Source: Opitutia bacterium (GTDB lineage: Bacteria; Verrucomicrobiota; Verrucomicrobiia; Opitutales; T3Sed10-336). Taken from it: a stretch of 64,000 bases of DNA. The position numbers and the translations under genes were made by a program. Within the stretch, counting starts at the first letter, position 1, and each line of letters opens with the position of its first letter. This document shows, piece by piece, positions 3,923 to 52,327 of the stretch. The notes under the pieces are model-generated. The model saw only the letters and a list, made by a program, of their open reading frames with translations. It searched no databases and had not been told where the DNA came from. The stretch is from the NCBI GenBank assembly GCA_050506795.1, contig JBJHCF010000001.1, positions 60,556-124,555 on the forward strand, given 5' to 3'.

Positions 3923-5113
3923 TCAAAACCGGTGCCTCACTGGTCCGAGACTTACAATTGAGATGCCGATGAGAATCGCCGCGAACCACGCCACGGTGGT
4001 GGGAGCGTAGAGAGCGATTAGGTAAAACCCGAGAAAGGGAGCCAGAACGCCTCGTATGCCGGTGGTGAAGGTGTGCACGCTCATGTAGTCGGCCGCTTTG
4101 CCTTCGGGGGCGAGTTTGGTCACCCACAGGTTCCAGGCGATGTGGCCGCCGGCCGCACCGATGCCGAAAATGGCGGAGGCGATTCCGAGCACAATCAGAT
4201 TCTGGGAGTTGAAAAAGAGGAGTATCGCCACCAGGAAACAGCCGTTCAGCAGGGTGCGTATTACGATGAAGTTGATACGGTCAAAAAGGTAACCCCACAT
4301 ATGGGTGGTCAGCAGGCGCGAGACCGACGGGATAACCGCAGTCATCAGCGCGATCTGGGCATTGGTGGCGTTTATCCCGAAACGGGGTTGCGCCATGTAC
4401 TCCACTCGCAGCGGCAACGTCATGAGATTTCCGATGCCCATCAACATCCAGATCAGGAGCATCCAGCCGAAAACCTTGTCCGTCCAGGCCAGGCTGAGAT
4501 TGCCGAATGGGTTGCGTGACGCCTGGGCGGTGAGCGGATTGGAGGGCATGCGAGAAACCGCCCAGGCGGACACCAGACACGCGACCGCGAGGACCAGCAT
4601 GATGTAGGAGTAGTTGTTCAGATCCGCATCCAGCATACGTCCGCCGGCATAGGCGAACAGGGCGGACGCCAGGACGGCGATAAAGATGCTGTTGGACAGC
4701 AGGGAGCCTCGCCGGCTCGGGTGGTAGTTGTCGGAATAAATGTGAACCATGAACGGCACCTGCTGATGCAGAAGGAGGTACCCGAGCACCGTAGCCACGA
4801 CAAAGACGTACAGATTGCCCGTCCAGGCCGACACCAGCAAGGCGGTGCAGGCAAGGGTCAGAAAGAAACCCGCGGCCCGGGCCGCGGGCGTACGCAAACG
4901 TGAGACGAGATAGAGGCTGACCGGAGTCAGCAGCAACCCGTAGGGTCCGGCGCCGGCCAGGAGTGATTTCATGATCGGAGAAGCGTCGAAGACCCGCACC
5001 GCGATGAGCAGGACAAAGGTTTGCATTCCGGCTTCGAGAAACCCCTGGCAACCGCCCCGGACCAGATCGTACCGAAAGGTCAGTTGCGCCCGCCTCTTAC
5101 GATCGTCCTCCAT
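3923..5113 (-). CDS. MFS transporter
   Basis: 396 aa with about 12 hydrophobic segments and MFS-like topology. Substrate unknown. Confidence 0.6.
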   Translation of the reverse strand: MEDDRKRRAQLTFRYDLVRGGCQGFLEAGMQTFVLLIAVRVFDASPIMKSLLAGAGPYGLLLTPVSLYLVSRLRTPAARAAGFFLTLACTALLVSAWTGNLYVFVVATVLGYLLLHQQVPFMVHIYSDNYHPSRRGSLLSNSIFIAVLASALFAYAGGRMLDADLNNYSYIMLVLAVACLVSAWAVSRMPSNPLTAQASRNPFGNLSLAWTDKVFGWMLLIWMLMGIGNLMTLPLRVEYMAQPRFGINATNAQIALMTAVIPSVSRLLTTHMWGYLFDRINFIVIRTLLNGCFLVAILLFFNSQNLIVLGIASAIFGIGAAGGHIAWNLWVTKLAPEGKAADYMSVHTFTTGIRGVLAPFLGFYLIALYAPTTVAWFAAILIGISIVSLGPVRHRF

Positions 5114-5272
5114 GTGGTGAGCAAACCGGGAAAGAGCGCGATGGAAAAGGAAAAAGGTGTTTTATCCGTACCAGGGAATGCCCGGGGCGACAATCGAGGC
5201 ATGGTATTTAACAATAGATGCCCGGACGCGAATGGTATCCCGGAGTAAAGTTGAAAATCTGAATTACCCGAT

Positions 5273-18800: not shown

Positions 18801-18875
18801 GGGCTCACACGGAGCCACGGAGCTCACGGAGGTGGGTCCTGTAAAAATCTCCGTGACTTTGTGGCTCCGAGTGAG
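18801..18875. repeat. CACGGAG-word imperfect inverted repeat
   Basis: CTCACACGGAGCCACGGAGCTCACGGAG ... CTCCGTGACTTTGTGGCTCCGAGTGAG with a 17-nt loop. The left arm is homologous to 49115-49150. Confidence 0.6.
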
Positions 18876-25009: not shown

Positions 25010-27037
25010 ATGTCCGACAACCAACAGCAGGGTCCCGCCAAACCGCCGACCCCCGACAATAATAACAAGTACCAGCCAAAGGTCTTGTTCATCTGGCTCG
25101 CGATTTTCGCGGCGATCGCCAGCTTGTGGATTTTGAATCCCACCCCCGACATGGAGCGGCCGGTCACGGTGAAACAGGTCCTTGATCTGGCCCAGGAGGG
25201 GAGAATTGAGGCTGCCACTGTCAGAGCCAACAAGCGGGGCGGACACGATTTTGTGGACATCACCGGGACTTTCGCCACCCGGGTGCCGGAGCTCAACGTG
25301 GATATGGGAGAGCGCTTCAAGGCCAGCGGTCGTTTGACCGAGGGCAATCTGGACATCCTGCGTGACAGTCTGGGCGCGGATGCCTTGAAGGAGGAGCCGT
25401 CATCCACCGTGATGTCGGATATCCTCATCTCGCTGTTGCCGTTCATTCTCATTATCGCGCTTCTCTATTTTCTTTTCATCCGCCAACTGCGAATGGCCGG
25501 CAAGGGCGCCATGAGTTTCGGCAAGAGCAAGGCCAAGATGCTCACCCGTGACCGGCAAAAGGTGTATTTCCGGGATGTCGCCGGCTGTGATGAGGCCAAG
25601 GAGGAGGTCCAGGAGGTCGTCGATTTTCTGCGCGACCCCAAGAAGTTTCAACATGTCGGCGGACGTATTCCCAAGGGCTTCCTGATGGTGGGGCCTCCCG
25701 GAACGGGTAAGACATTGCTGGCCAAAGCGGTGGCCGGTGAGGCCGACGTTCCCTTTTTCACTATCAGCGGTTCCGACTTCGTGGAAATGTTTGTCGGGGT
25801 CGGCGCCAGCCGGGTGCGCGATATGTTCGAGCAGGGTCGCAAGAACGCGCCCTGCCTGATTTTCATTGACGAAATCGACGCCGTCGGCCGGCAACGCGGC
25901 GCCGGAGTGGGCGGAGGCAATGATGAACGCGAACAGACGCTGAATTCGCTGCTGGTGGAAATGGACGGCTTCGAAGGGCATGAGGGAGTGATCATCATCG
26001 CCGCCACCAACCGTCCGGACGTTCTCGATAGCGCACTGCTCCGTCCGGGGCGTTTCGATCGTCAGATTATGATCGATCTCCCCGACCTGGCCGGTCGGCG
26101 CCAGATTCTGGATGTCCACGCGAAGAAGATCAAGTTGGAGGAGGATGTCGATCTCGATGTGGTGGCCCGCAGCACACCGGGGCTCTCCGGTGCGGACCTG
26201 GCCAACCTGCTGAACGAATCCGCGCTCATCGCGGTGCGTTACGGGGCGAAAAAGGTTTCCCTCTCCCACATTGAAGAAGCCCGGGAAAAGATCCAGTACG
26301 GCCGCGAGCGGCGCCGTATCATGGACGACGAGGACAAGCGCCTGATCGCCTACCACGAGGCGGGTCATGCCTTGATCCAGGCGGTGGTCGACGACGGCAG
26401 CCTTCCGCTGCACAAGGTGACCATCATCCCGCGCGGGCAAAGTCTCGGCAGCACCATGTTCCTGCCGAAGAAGGACACTTACAATTATTCAAAAAAGCGG
26501 CTTCTTAACCAGATCGCCAGCATCATGGGCGGCCGCATCGCGGAAGAGCTGGTGCTGGGAGATATTTCCAGCGGGGCCAGCGGCGATATCAAACAGGCGA
26601 CCAAGATTGCCCGTCACATGGTCTGCGACTGGGGTATGAGCAGTCTCGGCCCGCTTTCGCTGGGCGAGAATCAGGACACGGTGTTTCTCGGAAAGGAAAT
26701 CAACCGCACGCAGAACTACAGCGAGGAAACCGCGCGAAAAATCGACGCGGAATTGCATCGCATCATCGACGAGCAATACGAGCGGGCCACCGGGATCATG
26801 AAAGAGCGGCGATCAGCGCTCGATGCCATCGCCGACGCCCTGATGGAACACGAAACCATCGACGGCAAACACGTCCATGAGATCGTGGAGCACGGGGAAA
26901 TTCGTTCGCCGGTGGAAAAGGCGCCCTCGGTCATCCACCAGGAAAAGAAAAAGCGCGAAAAGGAGAAAGCCGCTGCCGAAAAGAAGAGCAAGAAAGTCGA
27001 CGATCCCCCCGGCGATCCCGCCGGGGCGGTGGCTTGA
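25010..27037 (+). CDS. ftsH: ATP-dependent zinc metalloprotease FtsH
   Basis: Walker A GPPGTGKT, the SRH region, and the HEAGHA zinc motif. Confidence 0.95.
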
Positions 27038-27072
27038 TCCGCGGATTGCTCCACTTTAGCCCCTTAATTCTG

Positions 27073-27100
27073 AAATCTTGCGCAAATCGCGCAAGATTTT
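27073..27100 (+). terminator. rho-independent terminator of ftsH
   Basis: 11-bp stem AAATCTTGCGC / GCGCAAGATTT, loop AAATC, followed by a T run. Confidence 0.65.
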
Positions 27101-27102
27101 CT

Positions 27103-27166
27103 GGAGGGCAACGCTCCGCCGTTGCCGCCCGATCGGCAAATCGGAAGCGGCGGAGCGTTGCCCTCC
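27103..27166. repeat. perfect 19-bp inverted repeat with nested hairpin (GGAGGGCAACGCTCCGCCG ... CGGCGGAGCGTTGCCCTCC)
   Basis: Arms at 27103-27121 and 27148-27166 with a 26-nt loop. The left arm contains a 7-bp hairpin (27107-27126) that recurs with compensatory changes at 40407-40433. Confidence 0.85.
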
Positions 27167-27226
27167 ACGTAACTCCTGATTGGTAACGGCTAGGCCGGAT
27201 TATGGATCAGGAGTCTCCCGCGCGGC

Positions 27227-28807
<1,581 letters not shown>

Positions 28808-33850: not shown

Positions 33851-33916
33851 CGCCGGCTGAAGCACGGCGCTACGCATTCATGGCTCCGAATTCGTAGGTC
33901 CGTGCTTTAGCCGGAC
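33851..33916. repeat. pair of oppositely oriented hairpins with the conserved loop TGCTTCAGC / TGCTTTAGC
   Basis: CGCCG-gctgaagca-CGGCG (33851-33869) and GTCCG-tgctttagc-CGGAC (33898-33916). Confidence 0.7.
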
Positions 33917-39601: not shown

Positions 39602-40138
39602 ATGCGGCTACCAGGAATTATGGCATGTTTGGATTATCAGGTAATGCGATTTCTGCTTGTGGGATTTCTCGCGGCGGGCGTGGAATTTGTTTTTTTTAAC
39701 TGGTTCGTTCGGTTCTTCTGGTGTTCGGTTCGTGTGCGGGCTAATCTGGTTGCGGTAACGGTCGCCATGTCGCTAAGTTTTCTTTTGAACCGAAATTGGA
39801 CCTTCGCGGATACGAATTCTGGGAGTTGGCCGGTGATGGAGTTTGTGGTGGTGACGCTTATTGCGGCTTATGGCCTTCAGTCGTTTGTGATTTGGGTCCT
39901 TTCGGTTAATTCGGCTGAAGCTGTATCCGGCGAGGATGTGGGACGACGGATTGATGTATCGTGGATTGGGTTGCCTGGGCGCGAAGTGAAGCGGTTGGCT
40001 TACGGTCTGGCGGGGTGCGGTGGCGCCGCGTCGGCGGGTCGGGTGGATTTTGTGGAGCGTAATTTGGTCAAGGGGGCGGCGTTGGGAGTGGCCTTGATTT
40101 GGAATTTTTCATGGTACCGGTGGTATGTGTTTTCTTAA
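39602..40138 (+). CDS. GtrA-family membrane protein
   Basis: RFLLVGFLAAGVEFVFFNWFVRFF and NRNWTF motifs, four TM helices. The start may be 39644. Confidence 0.72.
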   Translation: MRLPGIMACLDYQVMRFLLVGFLAAGVEFVFFNWFVRFFWCSVRVRANLVAVTVAMSLSFLLNRNWTFADTNSGSWPVMEFVVVTLIAAYGLQSFVIWVLSVNSAEAVSGEDVGRRIDVSWIGLPGREVKRLAYGLAGCGGAASAGRVDFVERNLVKGAALGVALIWNFSWYRWYVFS

Positions 40139-40148
40139 ACTGATCGGA

Positions 40149-40469
40149 GGAACAACGAAACACACGAAACACACGAAAGACACGAAATGAGGGGAATGAA
40201 ATGATATTGAATGGGATCCTCGGGTGGAGGCACGGAGATGGAGGCGGGCAGCGATGTCGGCGTTCGCGGGATGGTGTTCAGGCAGAGGTACGAAGATAAT
40301 GAAGAAGGGTATTGGCCACAGAGATCACAAAGAACACAGACTGGTGAATTTAGCTGAGAACCGACAACGTTTGCGCGCCGATGCGGTAGGTGACGATTTC
40401 CAGTCCGGCGGCACGGGCGGAGCCGTGCCCTCCAGGATTTTTTCGTGCTTTTCGTGTGTTTCGTTGTCC
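40149..40469. repeat. CACGAAA-word inverted-repeat pair enclosing a ~250-bp spacer
   Basis: Left arm 40149-40188 (with an internal CACACGAAA duplication). Right arm 40437-40469 (ATTTTTTCGTGCTTTTCGTGTGTTTCGTTGTCC). Confidence 0.85.
40407..40433. repeat. second copy (reverse orientation) of the GGAGGGCA..GCTCCGCC..TGCCGCC hairpin element
   Basis: The reverse complement GGAGGGCACGGCTCCGCCCGTGCCGCC differs from 27103-27129 at 4 positions. All 4 are compensatory within the 7-bp stem. Confidence 0.8.
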
Positions 40470-40497
40470 GAAATATTTCCGCGGTCCAGGCTGCTCT

Positions 40498-41994
40498 ATG
40501 GAGAATAGAAAGAGGACTGTCATCGTTGGGGCGGGTCCGGCGGGGTTGACGGCGGCGGCGGAGTTGACCGGGTCGGGGTATGAGGTGACGGTGCTGGAGG
40601 CGGACAAGGACTATGTGGGAGGGATTTCGCGTACCGTCCGGTACAAGGATTTTCGCTTCGATATCGGCGGACACCGGTTTTTCAGCAAGAATGCTTCCAT
40701 CGTGGCTTGGTGGAAGGCGCGGTTGCCGGACGATTTTTTAAGCGTCCGGAGGCAGTCCCGGATTTTTTACGGTGGACGGTTTTACGACTATCCGTTGCGT
40801 CCGGCAAACGCTTTGCGGAATCTGGGCGTTTTCAAGAGTACCGCTTGTGTCATCAGCTACCTCCGCAGACGGGTGTTTCCGGTGAAGCCGGAGGTGACGT
40901 TTGAGGATTGGGTGACCAATCGGTTCGGCGACAGGCTGTTCGAGACTTTCTTCAAAACGTATACGGAAAAGGTCTGGGGTATGCCGTGTTCCGAGATCAG
41001 CGCGGACTGGGCGAGCCAGCGGATTAAGGGGCTTTCGTTAAAGGAGGCGGTGCTGGGTGCGTTTCGGGCTCAGGGGAGCGGCAACGGCGTCATCAAGACC
41101 TTGATCGACGAGTTCCAGTACCCGCGCCTGGGGCCGGGGATGATGTGGGAGAGGACCCGCGATGATCTTGCGGATGCCGGAATCCGGGTTCGCATGGGGC
41201 GAAAGGTTACGGAGATCCATCGGCACCACGGTCGAGTGGGGTTTATGCGGACGGTCGATGCGTCCGGGAAGATGGAGGATTGGGAGGCGGACGAATTCAT
41301 CGTGTCGATGCCTCTGCGCGATTGCGTGCTGGCGCTGCGGCCGGGGTTGAGTGAGGAGGCGTGCGTGGCGGCTCGCGGTTTGCGGTACCGTGATTTTCTT
41401 ACCGTGGCCTTGATTGTCGAGGCGGAGGACTTGTTTCCGGACAACTGGATTTACATCCATGACGCGACGGTTTCGGTCGGACGAATCCAGAACTTCAACA
41501 ACTGGAGTTCCGAGATGGTGGGGCGGCCGGGGGTGAGCTGTCTCGGGCTTGAATATTTCTGCAACGAGGGCGATTCCCTCTGGGAGAGTTCCGATGAGGC
41601 TTTGCTCGCGCTGGCGAAATCCGAAATCGGCAAGGTGGGACTGGCGCGGCCGGAGTCGGTGATTGACGGGTGCGTGGTGCGGATGGAGAAGGCGTATCCG
41701 GTTTACGACGGGGAATATGTCGAGCGGGTGAACACGATTCGCCAGGGGCTTTCGGTCCTGCAGAACTTACAGGTGGCCGGGCGGAACGGGATGCACAAGT
41801 ACAACAACCAGGACCATTCGATGATGACGGGCATCCTGGCGGCGCAACGGATCCAGGGCGGGACGCTGGACCCGTGGCGGGTGAACACCGACGCCGAGTA
41901 TCACGAAGGCGGTTCCAGCGAGCGCGAGGTCGGTCGCTTGGTGCCGGGCCGAGTGGAAAAGGATACTGTGGAAAGGACGACGGGGATCGAATAA
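40498..41994 (+). CDS. Rossmann-type FAD/NAD(P)-dependent oxidoreductase (amine-oxidase / UDP-galactopyranose-mutase-like)
   Basis: VIVGAGPAGLTAAAEL dinucleotide-binding motif, EADKDYVGG, DIGGHRFFSK. ATG 40498. The track extension to 40390 is encoded by repeat DNA. Confidence 0.8.
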   Translation: MENRKRTVIVGAGPAGLTAAAELTGSGYEVTVLEADKDYVGGISRTVRYKDFRFDIGGHRFFSKNASIVAWWKARLPDDFLSVRRQSRIFYGGRFYDYPLRPANALRNLGVFKSTACVISYLRRRVFPVKPEVTFEDWVTNRFGDRLFETFFKTYTEKVWGMPCSEISADWASQRIKGLSLKEAVLGAFRAQGSGNGVIKTLIDEFQYPRLGPGMMWERTRDDLADAGIRVRMGRKVTEIHRHHGRVGFMRTVDASGKMEDWEADEFIVSMPLRDCVLALRPGLSEEACVAARGLRYRDFLTVALIVEAEDLFPDNWIYIHDATVSVGRIQNFNNWSSEMVGRPGVSCLGLEYFCNEGDSLWESSDEALLALAKSEIGKVGLARPESVIDGCVVRMEKAYPVYDGEYVERVNTIRQGLSVLQNLQVAGRNGMHKYNNQDHSMMTGILAAQRIQGGTLDPWRVNTDAEYHEGGSSEREVGRLVPGRVEKDTVERTTGIE

Positions 41995-46882: not shown

Positions 46883-47608
46883 ATGGGGGTGTTATGCAAA
46901 AAGAGCCAATTGGCGTTGTTGCGGGAGAAGTTGCGGCGGGAGTTTCCCGGGAGTTTGCCTGCGGGTGAAAGGGTCAAAGTTTTCCCCACCGGGGTGCCGG
47001 GGTTGGATGGCTTGCTGGAGGGCGGGTTGCCGCGGGGCGGGGTGACGGAAGTCAGGGTGTGGGCCGCCAGCGCGGGCGGACAGACCTTATTGATGACGGT
47101 GCTCGATGCGGTGACCGCCCGGCCGGCGCCCGTCGCTATCATCGACCGGGCGGATGCCTGGGATTTTTCTGTCCTGAGCCCGGATCGGCGGCAGTGGGTG
47201 CTTTGGGTGCGTTGCCGGGGGGAGGGAGAGGCGGTGCGCGCGACCGACCTGTTGGTGCGCGACGGCAATTTTCCGCTGGTGGTGATGGATCTGCGGCGTC
47301 CGCCGGGGGAGCGTCGCGGGCGAAGCCTGCCGTCGCGAATCTGGTACCGTTTGCAACGGGGCGCGGAGCGTTCGGGGTGCGCGCTGGTGGCGGTCACCGG
47401 CGGGGAGTCTCTGCCCTGCGCCCGGCTTAAATTGAGTTTGCGCGTGTCCCTGAGCCTGGAGCACTTGGAGGCGCTGCACGAAAGACGGGTTTCCTGGGAA
47501 AGCGTGTTGGAAGTCTGTCAGGACGGGGAAATCTTCACCGGGCCGGATGGCCTTCCCGCGGCGCGGACGGAGCCACGCTCTCCAGGAGTTTTGTCCGTCT
47601 CGAATTAA
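46883..47608 (+). CDS. imuA: ImuA-like (RecA/SulA-fold) translesion-cassette protein
   Basis: FPTGVPGLDGLLEGGLPRGGVTEV motif. Positioned first in the imuA-imuB-dnaE2 cassette. Confidence 0.75.
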   Translation: MGVLCKKSQLALLREKLRREFPGSLPAGERVKVFPTGVPGLDGLLEGGLPRGGVTEVRVWAASAGGQTLLMTVLDAVTARPAPVAIIDRADAWDFSVLSPDRRQWVLWVRCRGEGEAVRATDLLVRDGNFPLVVMDLRRPPGERRGRSLPSRIWYRLQRGAERSGCALVAVTGGESLPCARLKLSLRVSLSLEHLEALHERRVSWESVLEVCQDGEIFTGPDGLPAARTEPRSPGVLSVSN

Positions 47609-47621
47609 ACAAGCACGACCT

Positions 47622-49079
47622 ATGAGTTACGCGGCGATCGGGATTCCAGGGTTTGCGCTGCAGGCGGCTTTGCGCTGCAGGGGTGGGGTTGGGGATCGGG
47701 TGGTGGTGTTGATGGACGAGACCTCACGCCGGGCGCGGGTTGTCGCGATGACCGCCTCGGCGGCGCGTCGCGGGATCAGGATGGGAATGACCGCTCCGCA
47801 AGTCTTGGCGCGCGAGCCCCGGGCCGAGATCGTTTCCCGTTCGCCGGAAGGAGAGGCGGCGGCCGCGACCCTTTTGCTTCGTCACGGTGGCTCGCTGGCG
47901 CCCCGCGCCGCCTGTGTCGAACCCGGGTTGTGCCTGGTGGACCTGGCAGGGGTTCCGCTGAAACGGCGGGAGCGGCAGCCCCGGGAAATCGTGACGGCGT
48001 TGCAACGCGAAGGGTTGAGCGCGCGTATCGGAATCGCTCGTACATCCGGACTCGCCCGGCTCGCCTGGCGGCGGGCGGAGCCGGTGCTGGAGGTGACCGA
48101 TGAAAAGGCGTTTGTCACTGATTTTCCCGTACACCTGGCCGGGCTGTCTCCGGCGGGAGAGAGGCTGATGAGGCATTGGGGGATGCGCACCCTGGGCGCG
48201 TTCGCCGCGCTTTCGCGCCAGGCGGTGGCGGAACGGCTGGGCGCGGAGGGGGTGGCGTTGTGGGATGTGGTCAACGGACGCGACAGCGCGCCGTTGCAGC
48301 CGGCGAGAGAGGAGGAGGTGTTTGAGGAGCGGATCGAATTCGAAACCGGGGTGGAAGCGCTCGATCCGGTTCGGCGTCAGGTGCAAATACTGGTGGAGCG
48401 TTTGATGGGGCGTTTGCGGTCCGGTCATCTGGCGGTAGACGAGTTGCTGCTGGAATTGGGGCAGGAATACGCCGCGCCGCTCGGACGGAGGTTTCGCCTG
48501 CCCGAGCCGGCCACCCGCGAGGATGTGGTCCTGCGCACTTTGGGGATCTGGCTGGAGTCGCTCAAGAGCGAACGCCGGGTGACCGGCGTGTATTTGCGAA
48601 TGTTTCCCGGCCGCATGCAGGCGAGGCAGGGCGAGCTCTTTGATGCCGGCATGGCCGACGCCCGTCGCCTGGCCGAAACGCTGGCCAACCTGACCGCCGT
48701 GGTCGGCGCCGACCGGGTGGGGTCACCCGGCCTGCTTCCCACCCACCGGCCGGACGCTTTCCGGATGGAACGGTTTTTTCCTGCCGGGAAGCGTATTGAT
48801 AATTCTATGACAGAGAATCCGGTTATGCCGCGGCCGCGCCGGTTTCGTCCTCCGCTTCCGGTTGCGGTGACACTGATCCGGGGACGCCCGCTGCGGCTGG
48901 CGGGAGCCTTTACCAATGACGAGATCGCCGGTTTGCAGGGACCCTGGTGTTTGTGCGGGGACTGGTGGCGCGAGGATCGCTGGTGGCGGGAGGAGTGGGA
49001 TGTCAAACTGCGGGGCGGCGGGGTTTACCTGTTGGTTCGCAGCGCGCGCGGTTGGCGCCTGGAGGGGATGTATGATTAG
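47622..49079 (+). CDS. imuB: ImuB, Y-family DNA polymerase-like protein
   Basis: MSYAAIGIPGFALQAAL start and a Y-family palm/fingers-like N-terminal half. Middle position in the cassette. Confidence 0.8.
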   Translation: MSYAAIGIPGFALQAALRCRGGVGDRVVVLMDETSRRARVVAMTASAARRGIRMGMTAPQVLAREPRAEIVSRSPEGEAAAATLLLRHGGSLAPRAACVEPGLCLVDLAGVPLKRRERQPREIVTALQREGLSARIGIARTSGLARLAWRRAEPVLEVTDEKAFVTDFPVHLAGLSPAGERLMRHWGMRTLGAFAALSRQAVAERLGAEGVALWDVVNGRDSAPLQPAREEEVFEERIEFETGVEALDPVRRQVQILVERLMGRLRSGHLAVDELLLELGQEYAAPLGRRFRLPEPATREDVVLRTLGIWLESLKSERRVTGVYLRMFPGRMQARQGELFDAGMADARRLAETLANLTAVVGADRVGSPGLLPTHRPDAFRMERFFPAGKRIDNSMTENPVMPRPRRFRPPLPVAVTLIRGRPLRLAGAFTNDEIAGLQGPWCLCGDWWREDRWWREEWDVKLRGGGVYLLVRSARGWRLEGMYD

Positions 49080-49114
49080 GGTCCGGTACCCTGAAATGGT
49101 AGCCAGCGGAAGCA

Positions 49115-49150
49115 GGGCTCACACGGAGACACGAAGACACGGAGTGAAGG
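49115..49150. repeat. CACGGAG-word repeat copy (GGGCTCACACGGAGACACGAAGACACGGAGTGAAGG)
   Basis: Homologous to 18801-18836. Contains three 8-nt units acacggag|acacgaag|acacggag. Confidence 0.75.
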
Positions 49151-49171
49151 CATGCGCGAAGAGCAGGACTT

Positions 49172-49203
49172 AAATCCAAAATCCGCAATCCAAAATCCAA
49201 AAT
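49172..49203. repeat. AAAATCC heptamer array
   Basis: aaatcc|aaaatcc|gcaatcc|aaaatcc|aaaat. Ends 8 nt before the dnaE2 ATG. Confidence 0.85.
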
Positions 49204-49210
49204 ATAATAT

Positions 49211-52200
49211 ATGTCGACTTACGTGGAGTTGCATCTGTCGAGCGCTTTCAGCTTTTTGCGAGGCGCGTCGGCGCCGGAGGAGTTGGCTCGGGTGACGGCC
49301 GATCGGGGCATGAGTGCGGCCGCGTTGTGCGACCGCAACGGGCTTTACGGGGCGGCGCGTTTTTACCAGGCGGCGCGGGAGCACGGGATACGTCCGCTGG
49401 TCGGGTGTGAACTCGACTGGGTGGGGGGGGGGGTGCTGCCGGTGCTGGTGGCGTCGCGCCGGGGTTACCGCAACCTGTGCCGTTTGCTGACCCGGGTGCA
49501 TTTGCGGGGCGCCAAGGGGGAGTTCCGGGCCGGATTGGCGGATATGGAGGGGCGCTCCGAGGGATTGATCGCCCTGACCGGCGGCCGGGACGGTCCCTTG
49601 CGGGAGGCCTGGGAGCGGGGCGGCCGGCGGGCGGTGGAGGGGACTCTGGATTGGCTTTTACGGATCTTCCCCGACGGTAATCTTTACGTGGAACTGCAGC
49701 GTCACCTGTTGCGGGAAGAGATGCGGTGGGAGGGTTTGTTGCGGGACCTGGCCGCTACCCGGGGATTGTCCCTGGTGGCCACCAACGGGGTGCTTTATGC
49801 CAAAAGCGAAGGGCGGATGGTGACCGATGTGTTCACCTGCCTGCGTCACCACACCCATCTCGACCGGGCGGGAACTTTGCTGGAGCGCAATGCCGAGCGC
49901 CGCATCAAAAGCCCTGAGGAAATGGCGTTGCTGTTCGCGGATGTTCCGGAGGCGATCGCCAATTCCGTGGTCGTCGCGGAGCGGCTGGAGTTCACTCTGG
50001 ACGACATCGGGTACCGTTTTCCCACTTACCCGGCGCCGTCCGGGGAAACCATGGATTCCTACCTGCGGAAACTCACGTTGGCCGGGGCCGGGGAACGTTA
50101 CGGAAAGCCCGGGCCGGCGGTGCGGGCGCAGCTTGACCGGGAACTGGCGCTTATCGCGAAACTGGGATTCAGCGGCTATTTTCTCGTGGTGTGGGATCTG
50201 GTGGAGTTTTGCCGGCGCAACGACATCATGGTCCAGGGCCGGGGGAGCGCTGCCAACAGCGCGGTGTGTTACTGTCTGGGCATCACCGCGGTCGATCCGG
50301 TGGGCGGGCGCTTGCTTTTCGAGCGTTTTTTAAGCGAGGGAAGAAAAACCTGGCCGGATATCGATCTCGATCTTCCCAGCGGGGAGCGCCGGGAGGCGGT
50401 GATCCAGGAGGTTTACCGTCGCTACGCGCCCAACGGTGCCGCCATGACCGCCAACGTTATCACCTACCGGGGACGCAGCGCGATACGGGAGATCGGCAAG
50501 GTCCTGAATTTTCCGGAGGAAACCCTGAACCGGTTTTCGAGCCTCTATGCCGGCGGAGATTATCCCCATACGCTCGATTTCGGAAAACAACTTTCCCAGG
50601 CCGGGATTTCGCCGCGTCATCCGAGGGCGGGGATTCTGCAACGGCTTTACGGCATGATTTACGGGTTGCCCCGTCACCTGGGGCAGCATCCCGGCGGCAT
50701 GATCGTTTGCCAGGGGGAACTGGACGGCGTGATGCCGCTGGAAAACGCGTCAATGCCCGGGCGGGTGGTGGCGCAGTGGGACAAGGACGATTGTGAGGAT
50801 CTGGGAATCGTCAAGGTGGACCTGTTGGGGCTCGGAATGATGTCGGCCCTGCAGGATGCGCTGAAGACAGCCGAACGACGCGGCCGCCCGGTCGATCTCG
50901 CACGGATTCCGAAGGATGACCCCGCCACTTACGATTTGATGTGCCGGGCCGATACCGTCGGGGTGTTTCAGATCGAAAGCCGGGCGCAGATGGCGACCCT
51001 TCCGCGGATGCAACCTCGAACTTTCTACGACCTGGTGATCGAGGTGGCTATCATTCGTCCGGGTCCGATTCAGGGAAATCTGGTGCACCCTTATCTGGAA
51101 CGCCGGGCGGGCCGGCAACCGGTGCGTTATTTCGATGAACGTCTGATTCCCGTCCTCGAGCGCACTCTGGGGGTGCCGCTGTTCCAGGAGCAGGTGCTCA
51201 AAATAGCCATGGAAATGGCCGATTTCAGCGGGACCGAGGCGGAGGAGTTGCGGCGGGCGCTGAACTTTCACCGTTCGCCGGAACGTTTGGACAAAGCCAC
51301 CGCCAAGCTGCGCGAAGCCATGCGGAGGAAGGGAGTTGACGATCGTACCATCGAGGAGATCGCGGAGGCGGTGGGTTCGTTCGCGCTGTACGGTTTTCCG
51401 GAATCCCACGCCATCAGTTTCGCTTTACTCGCCTACGCCAGCGCCTACCTGAAAGTGCATCGTCCGGCGGAGTTTTACATGGCCCTGCTGAACAATCAGC
51501 CCATGGGATTTTATTCTCCGGCGACACTGGTGCGGGACGCGAAAGCCCGCGGTATTCGGGTCCTGCCGGTGTGTGTGACTCTTTCCGGCTGGGATTGCTC
51601 GGTGGAGGACGATCACACGATTCGGCTGGGATTCGCCGTCATCCGTGACCTGCGCCGCGCGTCCGTCGAAAAGGTGTGCCGCGAACGCGCGCGGGCGCCG
51701 TTCCGTTCCATACGCGATCTGCTGGCGCGTACGGGTCTGAATCTGACGGAAAGACGGGCGCTGGCCCTGGTGGGCGCGTTGAACGCGCTGGCCGGTCACC
51801 GGCGTAACGCGCTCTGGCTGGTGGACGAAGCGGTGGCGGGCATGGGGTTGTTTCTGGCCGCGGCGGATGAGACGGAAACCGAAGAAAGCGCCGCCGGGCC
51901 CCTGGCCATGATGTCTTACCTGGAGCGCCTGCACGCCGATTACGCGGGCATGGAATTGAGCACCGGCGCGCACCCGATGAAGTGCCTGCGATCAGGATTG
52001 CAGGGGATTCTGAGCGCCGCGGATTTGAAAGGGGAAAAAGCCGGACGCCGGGTCACCCTGGCCGGCAGTGTGATCTGCCGTCAGAGACCGGCAACCGCCA
52101 GGGGAGTGGTGTTTATCAGTCTGGAGGACGAAACCGGCATCGGTAACGCGGTGGTGTCGTCCGGCCTGTTCGAACGTTATCGCCTGCTGATTTCCCGGGA

Positions 52201-52327
52201 ACCGTTTTTGGCCGTTACCGGTGTCCTGCAATCCATGGACGGCGTGGTATGTGTCCGTGCCGAACGGATACGCCGATTGGATGAGGCCGACGCCCTGCCA
52301 TCCGAAGTCTCCCATGACTTTTTTTGA
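49211..52327 (+). CDS. dnaE2: error-prone DNA polymerase DnaE2 (Pol III alpha-like)
   Basis: 1038 aa with PHP domain start YVELHLSSAFSFLRGAS, a Pol III alpha core and an OB fold. Cassette context with imuA and imuB. Confidence 0.92.
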   Translation: MSTYVELHLSSAFSFLRGASAPEELARVTADRGMSAAALCDRNGLYGAARFYQAAREHGIRPLVGCELDWVGGGVLPVLVASRRGYRNLCRLLTRVHLRGAKGEFRAGLADMEGRSEGLIALTGGRDGPLREAWERGGRRAVEGTLDWLLRIFPDGNLYVELQRHLLREEMRWEGLLRDLAATRGLSLVATNGVLYAKSEGRMVTDVFTCLRHHTHLDRAGTLLERNAERRIKSPEEMALLFADVPEAIANSVVVAERLEFTLDDIGYRFPTYPAPSGETMDSYLRKLTLAGAGERYGKPGPAVRAQLDRELALIAKLGFSGYFLVVWDLVEFCRRNDIMVQGRGSAANSAVCYCLGITAVDPVGGRLLFERFLSEGRKTWPDIDLDLPSGERREAVIQEVYRRYAPNGAAMTANVITYRGRSAIREIGKVLNFPEETLNRFSSLYAGGDYPHTLDFGKQLSQAGISPRHPRAGILQRLYGMIYGLPRHLGQHPGGMIVCQGELDGVMPLENASMPGRVVAQWDKDDCEDLGIVKVDLLGLGMMSALQDALKTAERRGRPVDLARIPKDDPATYDLMCRADTVGVFQIESRAQMATLPRMQPRTFYDLVIEVAIIRPGPIQGNLVHPYLERRAGRQPVRYFDERLIPVLERTLGVPLFQEQVLKIAMEMADFSGTEAEELRRALNFHRSPERLDKATAKLREAMRRKGVDDRTIEEIAEAVGSFALYGFPESHAISFALLAYASAYLKVHRPAEFYMALLNNQPMGFYSPATLVRDAKARGIRVLPVCVTLSGWDCSVEDDHTIRLGFAVIRDLRRASVEKVCRERARAPFRSIRDLLARTGLNLTERRALALVGALNALAGHRRNALWLVDEAVAGMGLFLAAADETETEESAAGPLAMMSYLERLHADYAGMELSTGAHPMKCLRSGLQGILSAADLKGEKAGRRVTLAGSVICRQRPATARGVVFISLEDETGIGNAVVSSGLFERYRLLISREPFLAVTGVLQSMDGVVCVRAERIRRLDEADALPSEVSHDFF

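Follow-up and report, generated by a model that had tools for sequence, protein, structure and literature searches.

A small hairpin occurs at 27.1 and 40.4 kb of the 64-kb stretch of DNA analysed here (the window), and its two copies differ only by paired changes in the stem. What kind of element is this, and what has kept its stem paired? A preliminary description of the window took the paired changes as evidence of selection on structure rather than on sequence. The analyses below lead us to conclude with high confidence that the element is a REP (repetitive extragenic palindrome) unit of the REP/REPIN–RAYT kind (RAYT, REP-associated tyrosine transposase), belonging to a TGGAG-tagged repeat family whose spread by RAYT is putative.

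Hairpin units in the window

Both 27-mers are present where they had been placed: positions 27103-27129 of the plus strand read GGAGGGCAACGCTCCGCCGTTGCCGCC, and the reverse complement of 40407-40433 reads GGAGGGCACGGCTCCGCCCGTGCCGCC. Their 7-bp stems (GGCAACG/CGTTGCC and GGCACGG/CCGTGCC) close the same loop, CTCCGC, within the same flanks (CT-GGAG ... GCC), and the copies differ at four positions, which make up two base pairs with compensatory changes (A-T to C-G and C-G to G-C), exactly as claimed. A search of the window with the pattern from the preliminary description, allowing up to three mismatches, returned three matches as compared to 0.01 expected from 100 shuffles. The third of these (27140-27166, minus strand) corresponds to the right arm of the 27.1-kb inverted repeat and is itself an inverted copy of the element.

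A covariance model, which the preliminary description had suggested as a check, was built (model R1, see below). It detects four units in the window, two of them forming the inverted doublet at 27.1 kb and the others lying singly at 40.4 and 47.6 kb (Table 1). Model scores are poor (E >= 0.04) for further TGGAGGGCA sites at 4540, 19031 and 19779 and for a TGGAGGGC site at 47013, and all four are taken to be chance or coding sequence. Unit 2 has the tag, 5' arm and loop of unit 1; its 3' arm, CGCTTCC, carries two uncompensated mismatches, and it is a decayed copy. Unit 4 folded alone gave no stable structure (z = +0.9). The density of four units per 64 kb is low and two of the four are degenerate, so the window copies may be relics as opposed to active elements. 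Searches of the 64 kb with E. coli and PVC queries found no RAYT gene.

Table 1. Coordinates of the hairpin units and of the adjoining terminator-like hairpin (window positions).
Feature	Position	Strand	Model R1 score	Description
REP unit 1	27102-27127	+	44.4 bits, E = 2e-8	T, GGAG (27103-27106), 5' arm GGCAACG (27107-27113), loop CTCCGC (27114-27119), 3' arm CGTTGCC (27120-27126), G; 7/7 stem pairs Watson-Crick
REP unit 2	27142-27167	-	23.6 bits, E = 0.0014	Inverted partner of unit 1
Inverted REP doublet (REPIN/BIME-like)	27102-27167	.		Tags outward; 20-bp perfect outer stem and 6-bp inner stem
REP unit 3, single	40409-40434	-	44.8 bits, E = 1.6e-8	T, GGAG, GGCACGG, CTCCGC, CCGTGCC, G
REP unit 4, single, degenerate	47559-47584	-	31.8 bits, E = 1.7e-5	T, GGAG, AGCGTGG, CTCCGT, CCGCGCC, G; five Watson-Crick pairs, one G-T, one mismatch
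Terminator-like hairpin (context, outside the REP)	27072-27102	+		AAATCTTGCGC-AAATC-GCGCAAGATTT, then TCT; directly upstream of the doublet; read by eye

The window holds further inverted repeats. At 18804-18875, 15-nt arms (CTCACACGGAGCCAC / GTGGCTCCGAGTGAG), 93% complementary and separated by a 42-nt spacer, lie in an intergenic stretch rich in CACGGAG/CTCCGTG words, and could represent a regulatory site or a repeat of another type. The second-longest inverted repeat of the window (33853-33914; CCGGCTGAAGCACGGCGCTACGCATTC / GAATTCGTAGGTCCGTGCTTTAGCCGG) has 27-nt arms that are 85% complementary and 8 nt apart, and its sequence is unrelated to the TGGAG family.

A family of TGGAG-tagged hairpins

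The element is one member of an extensive family of repeats, which can be written as T-GGAG-[GGnnnnn]-CTYYGY-[nnnnnCC]-G. The GTDB collection (one genome per species) was scanned with the pattern TGGAGGGCNNNGCTCCGCC, which comprises the 5' arm and loop and leaves the 3' arm free, and yielded at least 122 matches in at least 117 loci. Among the matches listed, the 3' arm is a perfect 7/7 complement in 32 of the 59 from PVC-group genomes (Planctomycetes-Verrucomicrobia-Chlamydiae superphylum; here Verrucomicrobiota, Kiritimatiellales, Lentisphaeria/Victivallales and Planctomycetota) as compared to none of the 63 from other taxa. All three free positions are paired in 34 of these 59 matches and in one of the 63 listed elsewhere, where chance pairing is expected about once in 64. 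The matches listed include at least 12 distinct perfectly paired stems, and at least 10 loci each in the VER2 MAG and the Opitutus GAS368 isolate MH-08apr19-303. The family is widespread in Verrucomicrobiota and also present in other PVC-group genomes.

Model R1, built from 36 distinct units, gave 109 matches in the PVC loci, representing 105 distinct copies. In the alignment of these copies, 95.9% of cells form standard pairs (69% in column shuffles), and changes on both sides occur at five of the seven stem pairs, with a covariation score of 0.611 as compared to 0.112. The signal collapses when the pairing partner is slid by one to three columns. Because the R1 alignment is fitted to the structure of the model, the scan with the free 3' arm matters as independent support. 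Taken together, the excess of paired cells and the free-arm test uphold selection on structure at the level of the family; the framing as a structured RNA fares far worse, as discussed below.

A second profile, which required only GGAG and any perfect 7-bp hairpin with a 6-nt loop, was compiled from 292 distinct units. Here, T precedes GGAG in 84% of units and G follows the stem in 63%. The first two stem pairs are G-C in 100% and the last in 87%, positions 3-6 are free, and the loop reads C-T-C-C-G-T with 73-91% agreement per position.

Non-compensatory stem variation in additional copies, which the preliminary description would have counted against its reading, is indeed seen in units 2 and 4 (27142-27167 and 47559-47584) and in an Opitutus GAS368 sub-family with 5/7 pairs. 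It does not overturn the family-level signal, and such variation is the expected appearance of decaying copies in a repeat family. The sub-family in question, TGGAGGGCCGAGCTCCGCCGAGGCCG, is found in Opitutus sp. GAS368 and related MAGs (L028, L037, L066, L067, L076, L083, L089, L097 and L103). Its single-unit hairpin pairs at only five of seven positions. A unit is nevertheless usually accompanied, about 25 nt away, by an inverted partner, and the two make up a long, near-perfect palindrome. In this sub-family it is apparently the doublet that is maintained, and not the small hairpin.

A single 26-nt unit, with its 7-bp stem and 6-nt loop, falls within the size range of REP stem-loops (about 20-40 nt). 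Inverted doublets occur in loci L018, L025, L057, L085 and L107 and in the Opitutus GAS368 set; many copies sit in inverted doublets, whose two halves may bear different stems. In locus L095 (3195-3628), three units lie exactly 201 bp apart in a tandem array of doublets. Doublet arrays such as those of L077 and L095 also create long spurious ORFs.

Association with a RAYT transposase gene

All loci were screened with an E. coli RayT sequence, which served as a probe only. The one match, in locus L077, was confirmed independently of the probe by NCBIfam and PDB comparison. Its ORF (4510-5019, minus strand) scores 82.9 bits, above the cut-off of 80, with the NCBIfam model for 'REP-associated tyrosine transposase' (NF047646). 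The match to Pfam Y1_Tnp is weak (19.1 bits, cut-off 23), as has been reported for RAYTs in general (PMC6006769). A database search with the protein gave 902 relatives at E <= 1e-5, several of which bear the name RayT in their source, and in 26 homologues the residues H68, H70, Y128, N132 and P133 of the HUH and Y...NP motifs are invariant. The best PDB match of the homologues is E. coli TnpA-REP (4ER8, E = 2e-12).

In L077, arrays of hairpin doublets with the TGGAG tag lie to either side of the RAYT gene. Across 4190-5170, these arrays have a period of about 80-90 bp, and units with a TTTCAT loop alternate with units with a CTYYGT loop in both flanks. TGGAG hairpins likewise border the gene on both sides in three independent homologue loci (L118, from a Chthoniobacterales MAG, L122 and L125); a fourth, L121, holds a bulged variant of the TGGAG/CTCC-tagged palindrome, which was read by eye and is unscored by the scan.

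A metagenome scan with the RAYT alignment added 80 loci. With no tag assumed, GGAG precedes 246 of 942 perfect 7-bp hairpins, in 60 of the 80 metagenomic loci; the runner-up tetranucleotide, TGGA, precedes 53, and GT[AG]G is absent from the 12 commonest tetranucleotides before hairpins at these loci. Among the 74 loci with enough flanking sequence, 52 have tagged hairpins within 300 bp on both sides and 17 have no GGAG hairpin within that distance. The density of tagged hairpins is 5.8 per kb near the RAYT gene and 0.32 per kb beyond. In related genomes, then, a RAYT gene is flanked by the same REPs as those of the window. The available text of two papers describes a RAYT gene bracketed by its REPs as the REPtron arrangement (PMC3733652; PMC6006769).

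The inverted doublet in the ftsH spacer

The doublet at 27.1 kb lies between the convergent genes for FtsH (25010-27037, plus strand) and an alpha-L-arabinofuranosidase (27227-28729, minus strand). Its inverted repeat, previously given as a perfect 19 bp, extends to 20 perfect bp (27102-27121 with 27148-27167), or in a wider view to 26-nt arms that are 92% complementary. Folded as a single strand, the whole doublet is predicted to form one long hairpin of -34.7 kcal/mol (z = -9.1), from which the small 7-bp hairpin is absent. A doublet in a Chthoniobacterales MAG (L039) is 79% identical to it over 66 bp.

Immediately upstream, the hairpin at 27072-27102 had been called the ftsH terminator. It looks like one by eye but is not called by a consensus terminator scan, in our reading because its T-run pairs into the stem.

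By its FtsH, the window belongs to an uncultured Opitutales-like verrucomicrobium: named hits at 66-74% identity are from Opitutales or Opitutaceae. The closest relative found (L131) has an FtsH that is 97% identical and the same convergent ftsH/arabinofuranosidase pair; the spacer between its two genes is unrelated in sequence to that of the window and contains no unit. The comparison shows turnover of REP units, by presence and absence, at an orthologous site. Exact-sequence look-ups returned no record for FtsH or the oxidase and, for the arabinofuranosidase, a single 3.3-kb contig. This short-read contig (L128; Logan SRR31311414_93665) carries an identical arabinofuranosidase gene and ends inside the doublet at window position ~27153, as would be expected if assembly broke off in repeated or palindromic sequence.

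Genomic context of the single units

Unit 3 occupies a 359-bp spacer between a GtrA-like gene (39602-40138, plus strand) and an amine-oxidase/FAD gene (ATG at 40498, plus strand), and is antisense to both of these co-directional neighbours. The unit had been described as abutting the right arm of a CACGAAA pair; that repeat is direct, not inverted, and ends 7 nt from TGGAG. On the plus strand, where CACGAAA reads TTTCGTG, a T-rich tract with three direct TTTCGTG repeats (40438-40470) separates unit 3 from the start codon of the oxidase.

The final codons of an imuA-like ORF (46883-47608) overlap with unit 4, such that the C-terminus of the predicted protein (..PAARTEPRSP..) is REP-encoded. An imuB-like gene (47622-49079) and dnaE2 (49211-52327) follow downstream. 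The whole cassette (46883-52327) comprises the imuA-like gene, with a weak NCBIfam match, the imuB-like gene of the Y-family, and the dnaE2 error-prone polymerase gene (NF004225, 1180 bits). REPs inside DNA-repair and dnaE2 genes have been noted in the available text of Di Nocera et al. (PMC3733652).

The gene context of 82 units in PVC loci was tallied with crude ORF calls and small numbers. By these crude calls, 24 units lie between tandem genes, nine between convergent genes and two between divergent genes. A further 30 of the 82 fall inside stop-to-stop ORF segments, a class that overestimates coding overlap. The same preference for tandem and convergent over divergent spacers is described in the text available from Di Nocera et al. 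(PMC3733652). A check of strand bias relative to transcription, also suggested in the preliminary description, gave none by the crude gene calls: single units between tandem genes are evenly divided, four sense and four antisense.

Alternative explanations

Could the units owe their presence to a role in the host? REP-derived units might have been recruited, the doublet as a bidirectional transcription stop or 3'-end protector, and the 40.4-kb unit with its T-rich tract to terminate or attenuate transcription between the GtrA-like gene and the oxidase gene. The very stable fold of the doublet (-34.7 kcal/mol), placed between convergent genes and right after a terminator-like hairpin, is consistent with such a role, as is the sequence TTTTTTCGTGCTTTTCGTG that begins 8 nt past the 40.4-kb stem on the plus strand. 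Furthermore, mRNA stabilisation and transcription termination by REPs have been reported in other bacteria, as the available text of two papers relates (PMC3733652; PMC6006769). However, consensus terminator and promoter scans called nothing at the 27.1-kb or the 40.4-kb site, the T-run at 40.4 kb starts 8 nt after the stem whereas an intrinsic terminator has it directly after a G+C-rich hairpin, and the closest relative found keeps the same gene pair without the doublet. A host role of this kind would also be a secondary effect compatible with the REP explanation, not an alternative origin, and we regard it as unlikely.

The conserved tag and loop around a variable stem, together with the BIME-like architecture of the doublet, would also suit sites that are bound by a protein of the host, such as gyrase or IHF, and kept for chromosome organisation, and such binding is reported for E. 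coli REPs (PMC6006769). The enrichment of the hairpins at RAYT genes and their turnover by presence and absence are nonetheless more simply explained by transposase-driven spread, which makes this alternative rather improbable.

A structured RNA element, either a cis-regulatory motif or a small RNA kept by selection on RNA folding, would account for the strong stem covariation, the conserved loop and the location of units in transcribed spacers downstream of genes. Several observations speak against it. The comparison with Rfam that had been proposed assigned the element to no family: a window-wide scan at the gathering score gave no matches, and permissive scans gave only generic long-hairpin (miRNA-precursor) matches far below threshold at 27.1 kb and nothing at 40.4 kb. 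The units occur in both orientations relative to flanking genes, two of those in the window being antisense to local genes, and inverted doublets and arrays cluster around transposase genes. The doublet is missing from the orthologous ftsH spacer of the relative with the 97%-identical FtsH, and in the computed fold at 27.1 kb the long doublet hairpin out-competes the small one. We therefore consider a structured RNA to be very improbable.

Finally, a chance likeness between two window copies, or paired changes arising by an unconstrained mutational route, is compatible with there being only two intact copies in the window and with the capacity of template switching within a hairpin to produce paired changes, but is refuted by the shuffles (three matches as compared to 0.01 expected), the free-3'-arm scan (complementary arms only in PVC genomes), the covariation and the 292-unit profile, with hundreds of related copies and at least 12 stems across many genomes, leaving it a negligible probability.

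Proposed mechanism

By analogy with E. coli TnpA-REP and the IS200/IS605 transposases, a REP unit of the TGGAG family would fold into its 7-bp hairpin when the DNA is single-stranded. A RAYT of the HUH-Y1 type would then bind this putative single-stranded substrate at the hairpin and at the GGAG tetranucleotide at its 5' foot, used as a guide, and would cut and rejoin the DNA, such that copies spread and are maintained. The presence/absence difference at the ftsH spacer is indirect evidence for such mobilisation. In this model, recognition would require a paired stem with GG/CC at its base, together with the tag and the loop; which bases fill the inner stem would not matter. The inner positions would consequently be free to change as long as both sides change, which would explain why the copies at 27.1 and 40.4 kb differ by compensatory changes. 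Propagation would be restricted to units that retain the tag and can still fold. A restriction of this kind would act on the repeat family as selection on structure, and would account for sub-families with complementary stem changes. The window copies would be dispersed members of the family, with the cognate RAYT, if the genome retains one, encoded outside the 64 kb. Transcript 3'-end protection, termination and protein binding are possible host-level by-products.

With G-T pairs counted, the loop begins with a complement of the GGAG tag: CTCC, or in variants YTYY (TTTC among them). This complementarity raises the possibility that guide and loop pair at some step of recognition or cleavage. 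A pseudoknot in which GGAG pairs with the CTCC of the loop while the 7-bp stem is formed appears sterically implausible; GGAG-CTCC pairing in an alternative conformer or in trans is possible.

On a broader scale, the GGAG hairpins and their RAYT clade might constitute an uncatalogued REP super-family, widespread in Verrucomicrobiota and in soil and freshwater metagenomes. It would add a third class of tag, the first other than GT[AG]G that has a dedicated class-2 RAYT; we offer this wider reading tentatively, as a possibility we hold to be less probable than its converse. If true, it would represent a natural specificity switch in how Y1 transposases read their guide. Guide and enzyme may have co-varied in the GGAG RAYT clade, and the paired change in the guide and the guide-contact residues (see below) provides a testable handle on specificity.

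The GGAG REPs account for several hairpins and inverted repeats in the genomes of Opitutales and other Verrucomicrobiota, which without the REP explanation are open to being mistaken for regulatory RNAs or terminators. By analogy with the known enzymes, their existence suggests that GGAG can serve a RAYT clade as the foot tetranucleotide. It also means that finders requiring GT[AG]G under-count REPs in PVC bacteria.

Comparison with known systems

The element is of a known kind, REP/REPIN with RAYT; what sets it apart is the GGAG tag, and no new kind of system needs to be invoked. The GGAG foot is non-canonical. Described RAYT-associated REPs are defined by GT[AG]G, from which GGAG departs; the tags listed in the available text of two papers are GT[AG]G, degenerate GYAG, GYRG, GTRG and GTMG forms, and GTGG in O. 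terrae (PMC3733652; PMC6006769). Searches of the available literature, which included the running text of Di Nocera et al., turned up no GGAG-tagged REP.

The closest likeness is to the GTAG REPs and REPtrons (E. coli REP/BIME, Pseudomonas REPINs, and the families GTAG-17 to GTAG-20 that Di Nocera et al. 2013 describe in Opitutus terrae). Both are short, G+C-rich hairpins of 6-9 bp with a conserved tetranucleotide at the 5' foot, and both include sub-families that differ by complementary stem residues, a property already described for REPs as 'alternative complementary stem residues' in the available text of Di Nocera et al. 2013 (PMC3733652). Both occur as single units and as inverted dimers, including hetero-dimers with a different stem in each half, and both, the GGAG units by crude gene calls, lie mostly after genes, with occasional intragenic copies, some of them in DNA-repair genes. 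In each case, a gene for a single-domain HUH-Y1 transposase is flanked by the repeats, and the best structural relative is E. coli TnpA-REP (4ER8). Unlike the GTAG REPs, the GGAG family has the tag T-GGAG, outside GT[AG]G and the listed degenerate forms, and a strongly conserved loop (CTYYGY) whose first four bases are the complement of the tag. The enzymes differ as well. E. coli TnpA-REP contacts GTAG through W94, Q95, E100, H101 and R104 (PMC6006769), whereas the GGAG RAYT clade reads W, Q, D, T and R at these positions (motif WQKSFWDTQLR). That the substitution of D-T for E100-H101 underlies the different guide is a speculation prompted by this alignment of residues.

A second likeness is to the subterminal hairpins of IS200/IS605 elements (IS608, ISDra2), which are hairpins of ~20-25 nt with a 4-nt guide at the 5' foot, and in which the Y1 HUH transposase recognises single-stranded DNA (PMC6006769). 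The PDB search with the RAYT homologues also matches IS200/IS605 transposases weakly (2F4F, 2XM3). In contrast to these elements, the GGAG units are not the ends of a gene-carrying IS and are instead dispersed alone or as doublets, and the RAYT gene sits in a REPtron-like array and scores 17 bits against the NCBIfam IS200 model (cut-off 55).

The CGTC-tagged REPs and the CnGA-footed class 3 elements resemble the GGAG family in being tagged short palindromes with a non-GTAG tetranucleotide, as far as the available text of two papers describes them (PMC3733652; PMC6006769). The CGTC REPs differ in that this same text presents them without an associated transposase. The class 3 elements differ in their enzymes, which carry Y....Q (PMC6006769), whereas the GGAG RAYT clade has Y...NP and matches the RAYT model.
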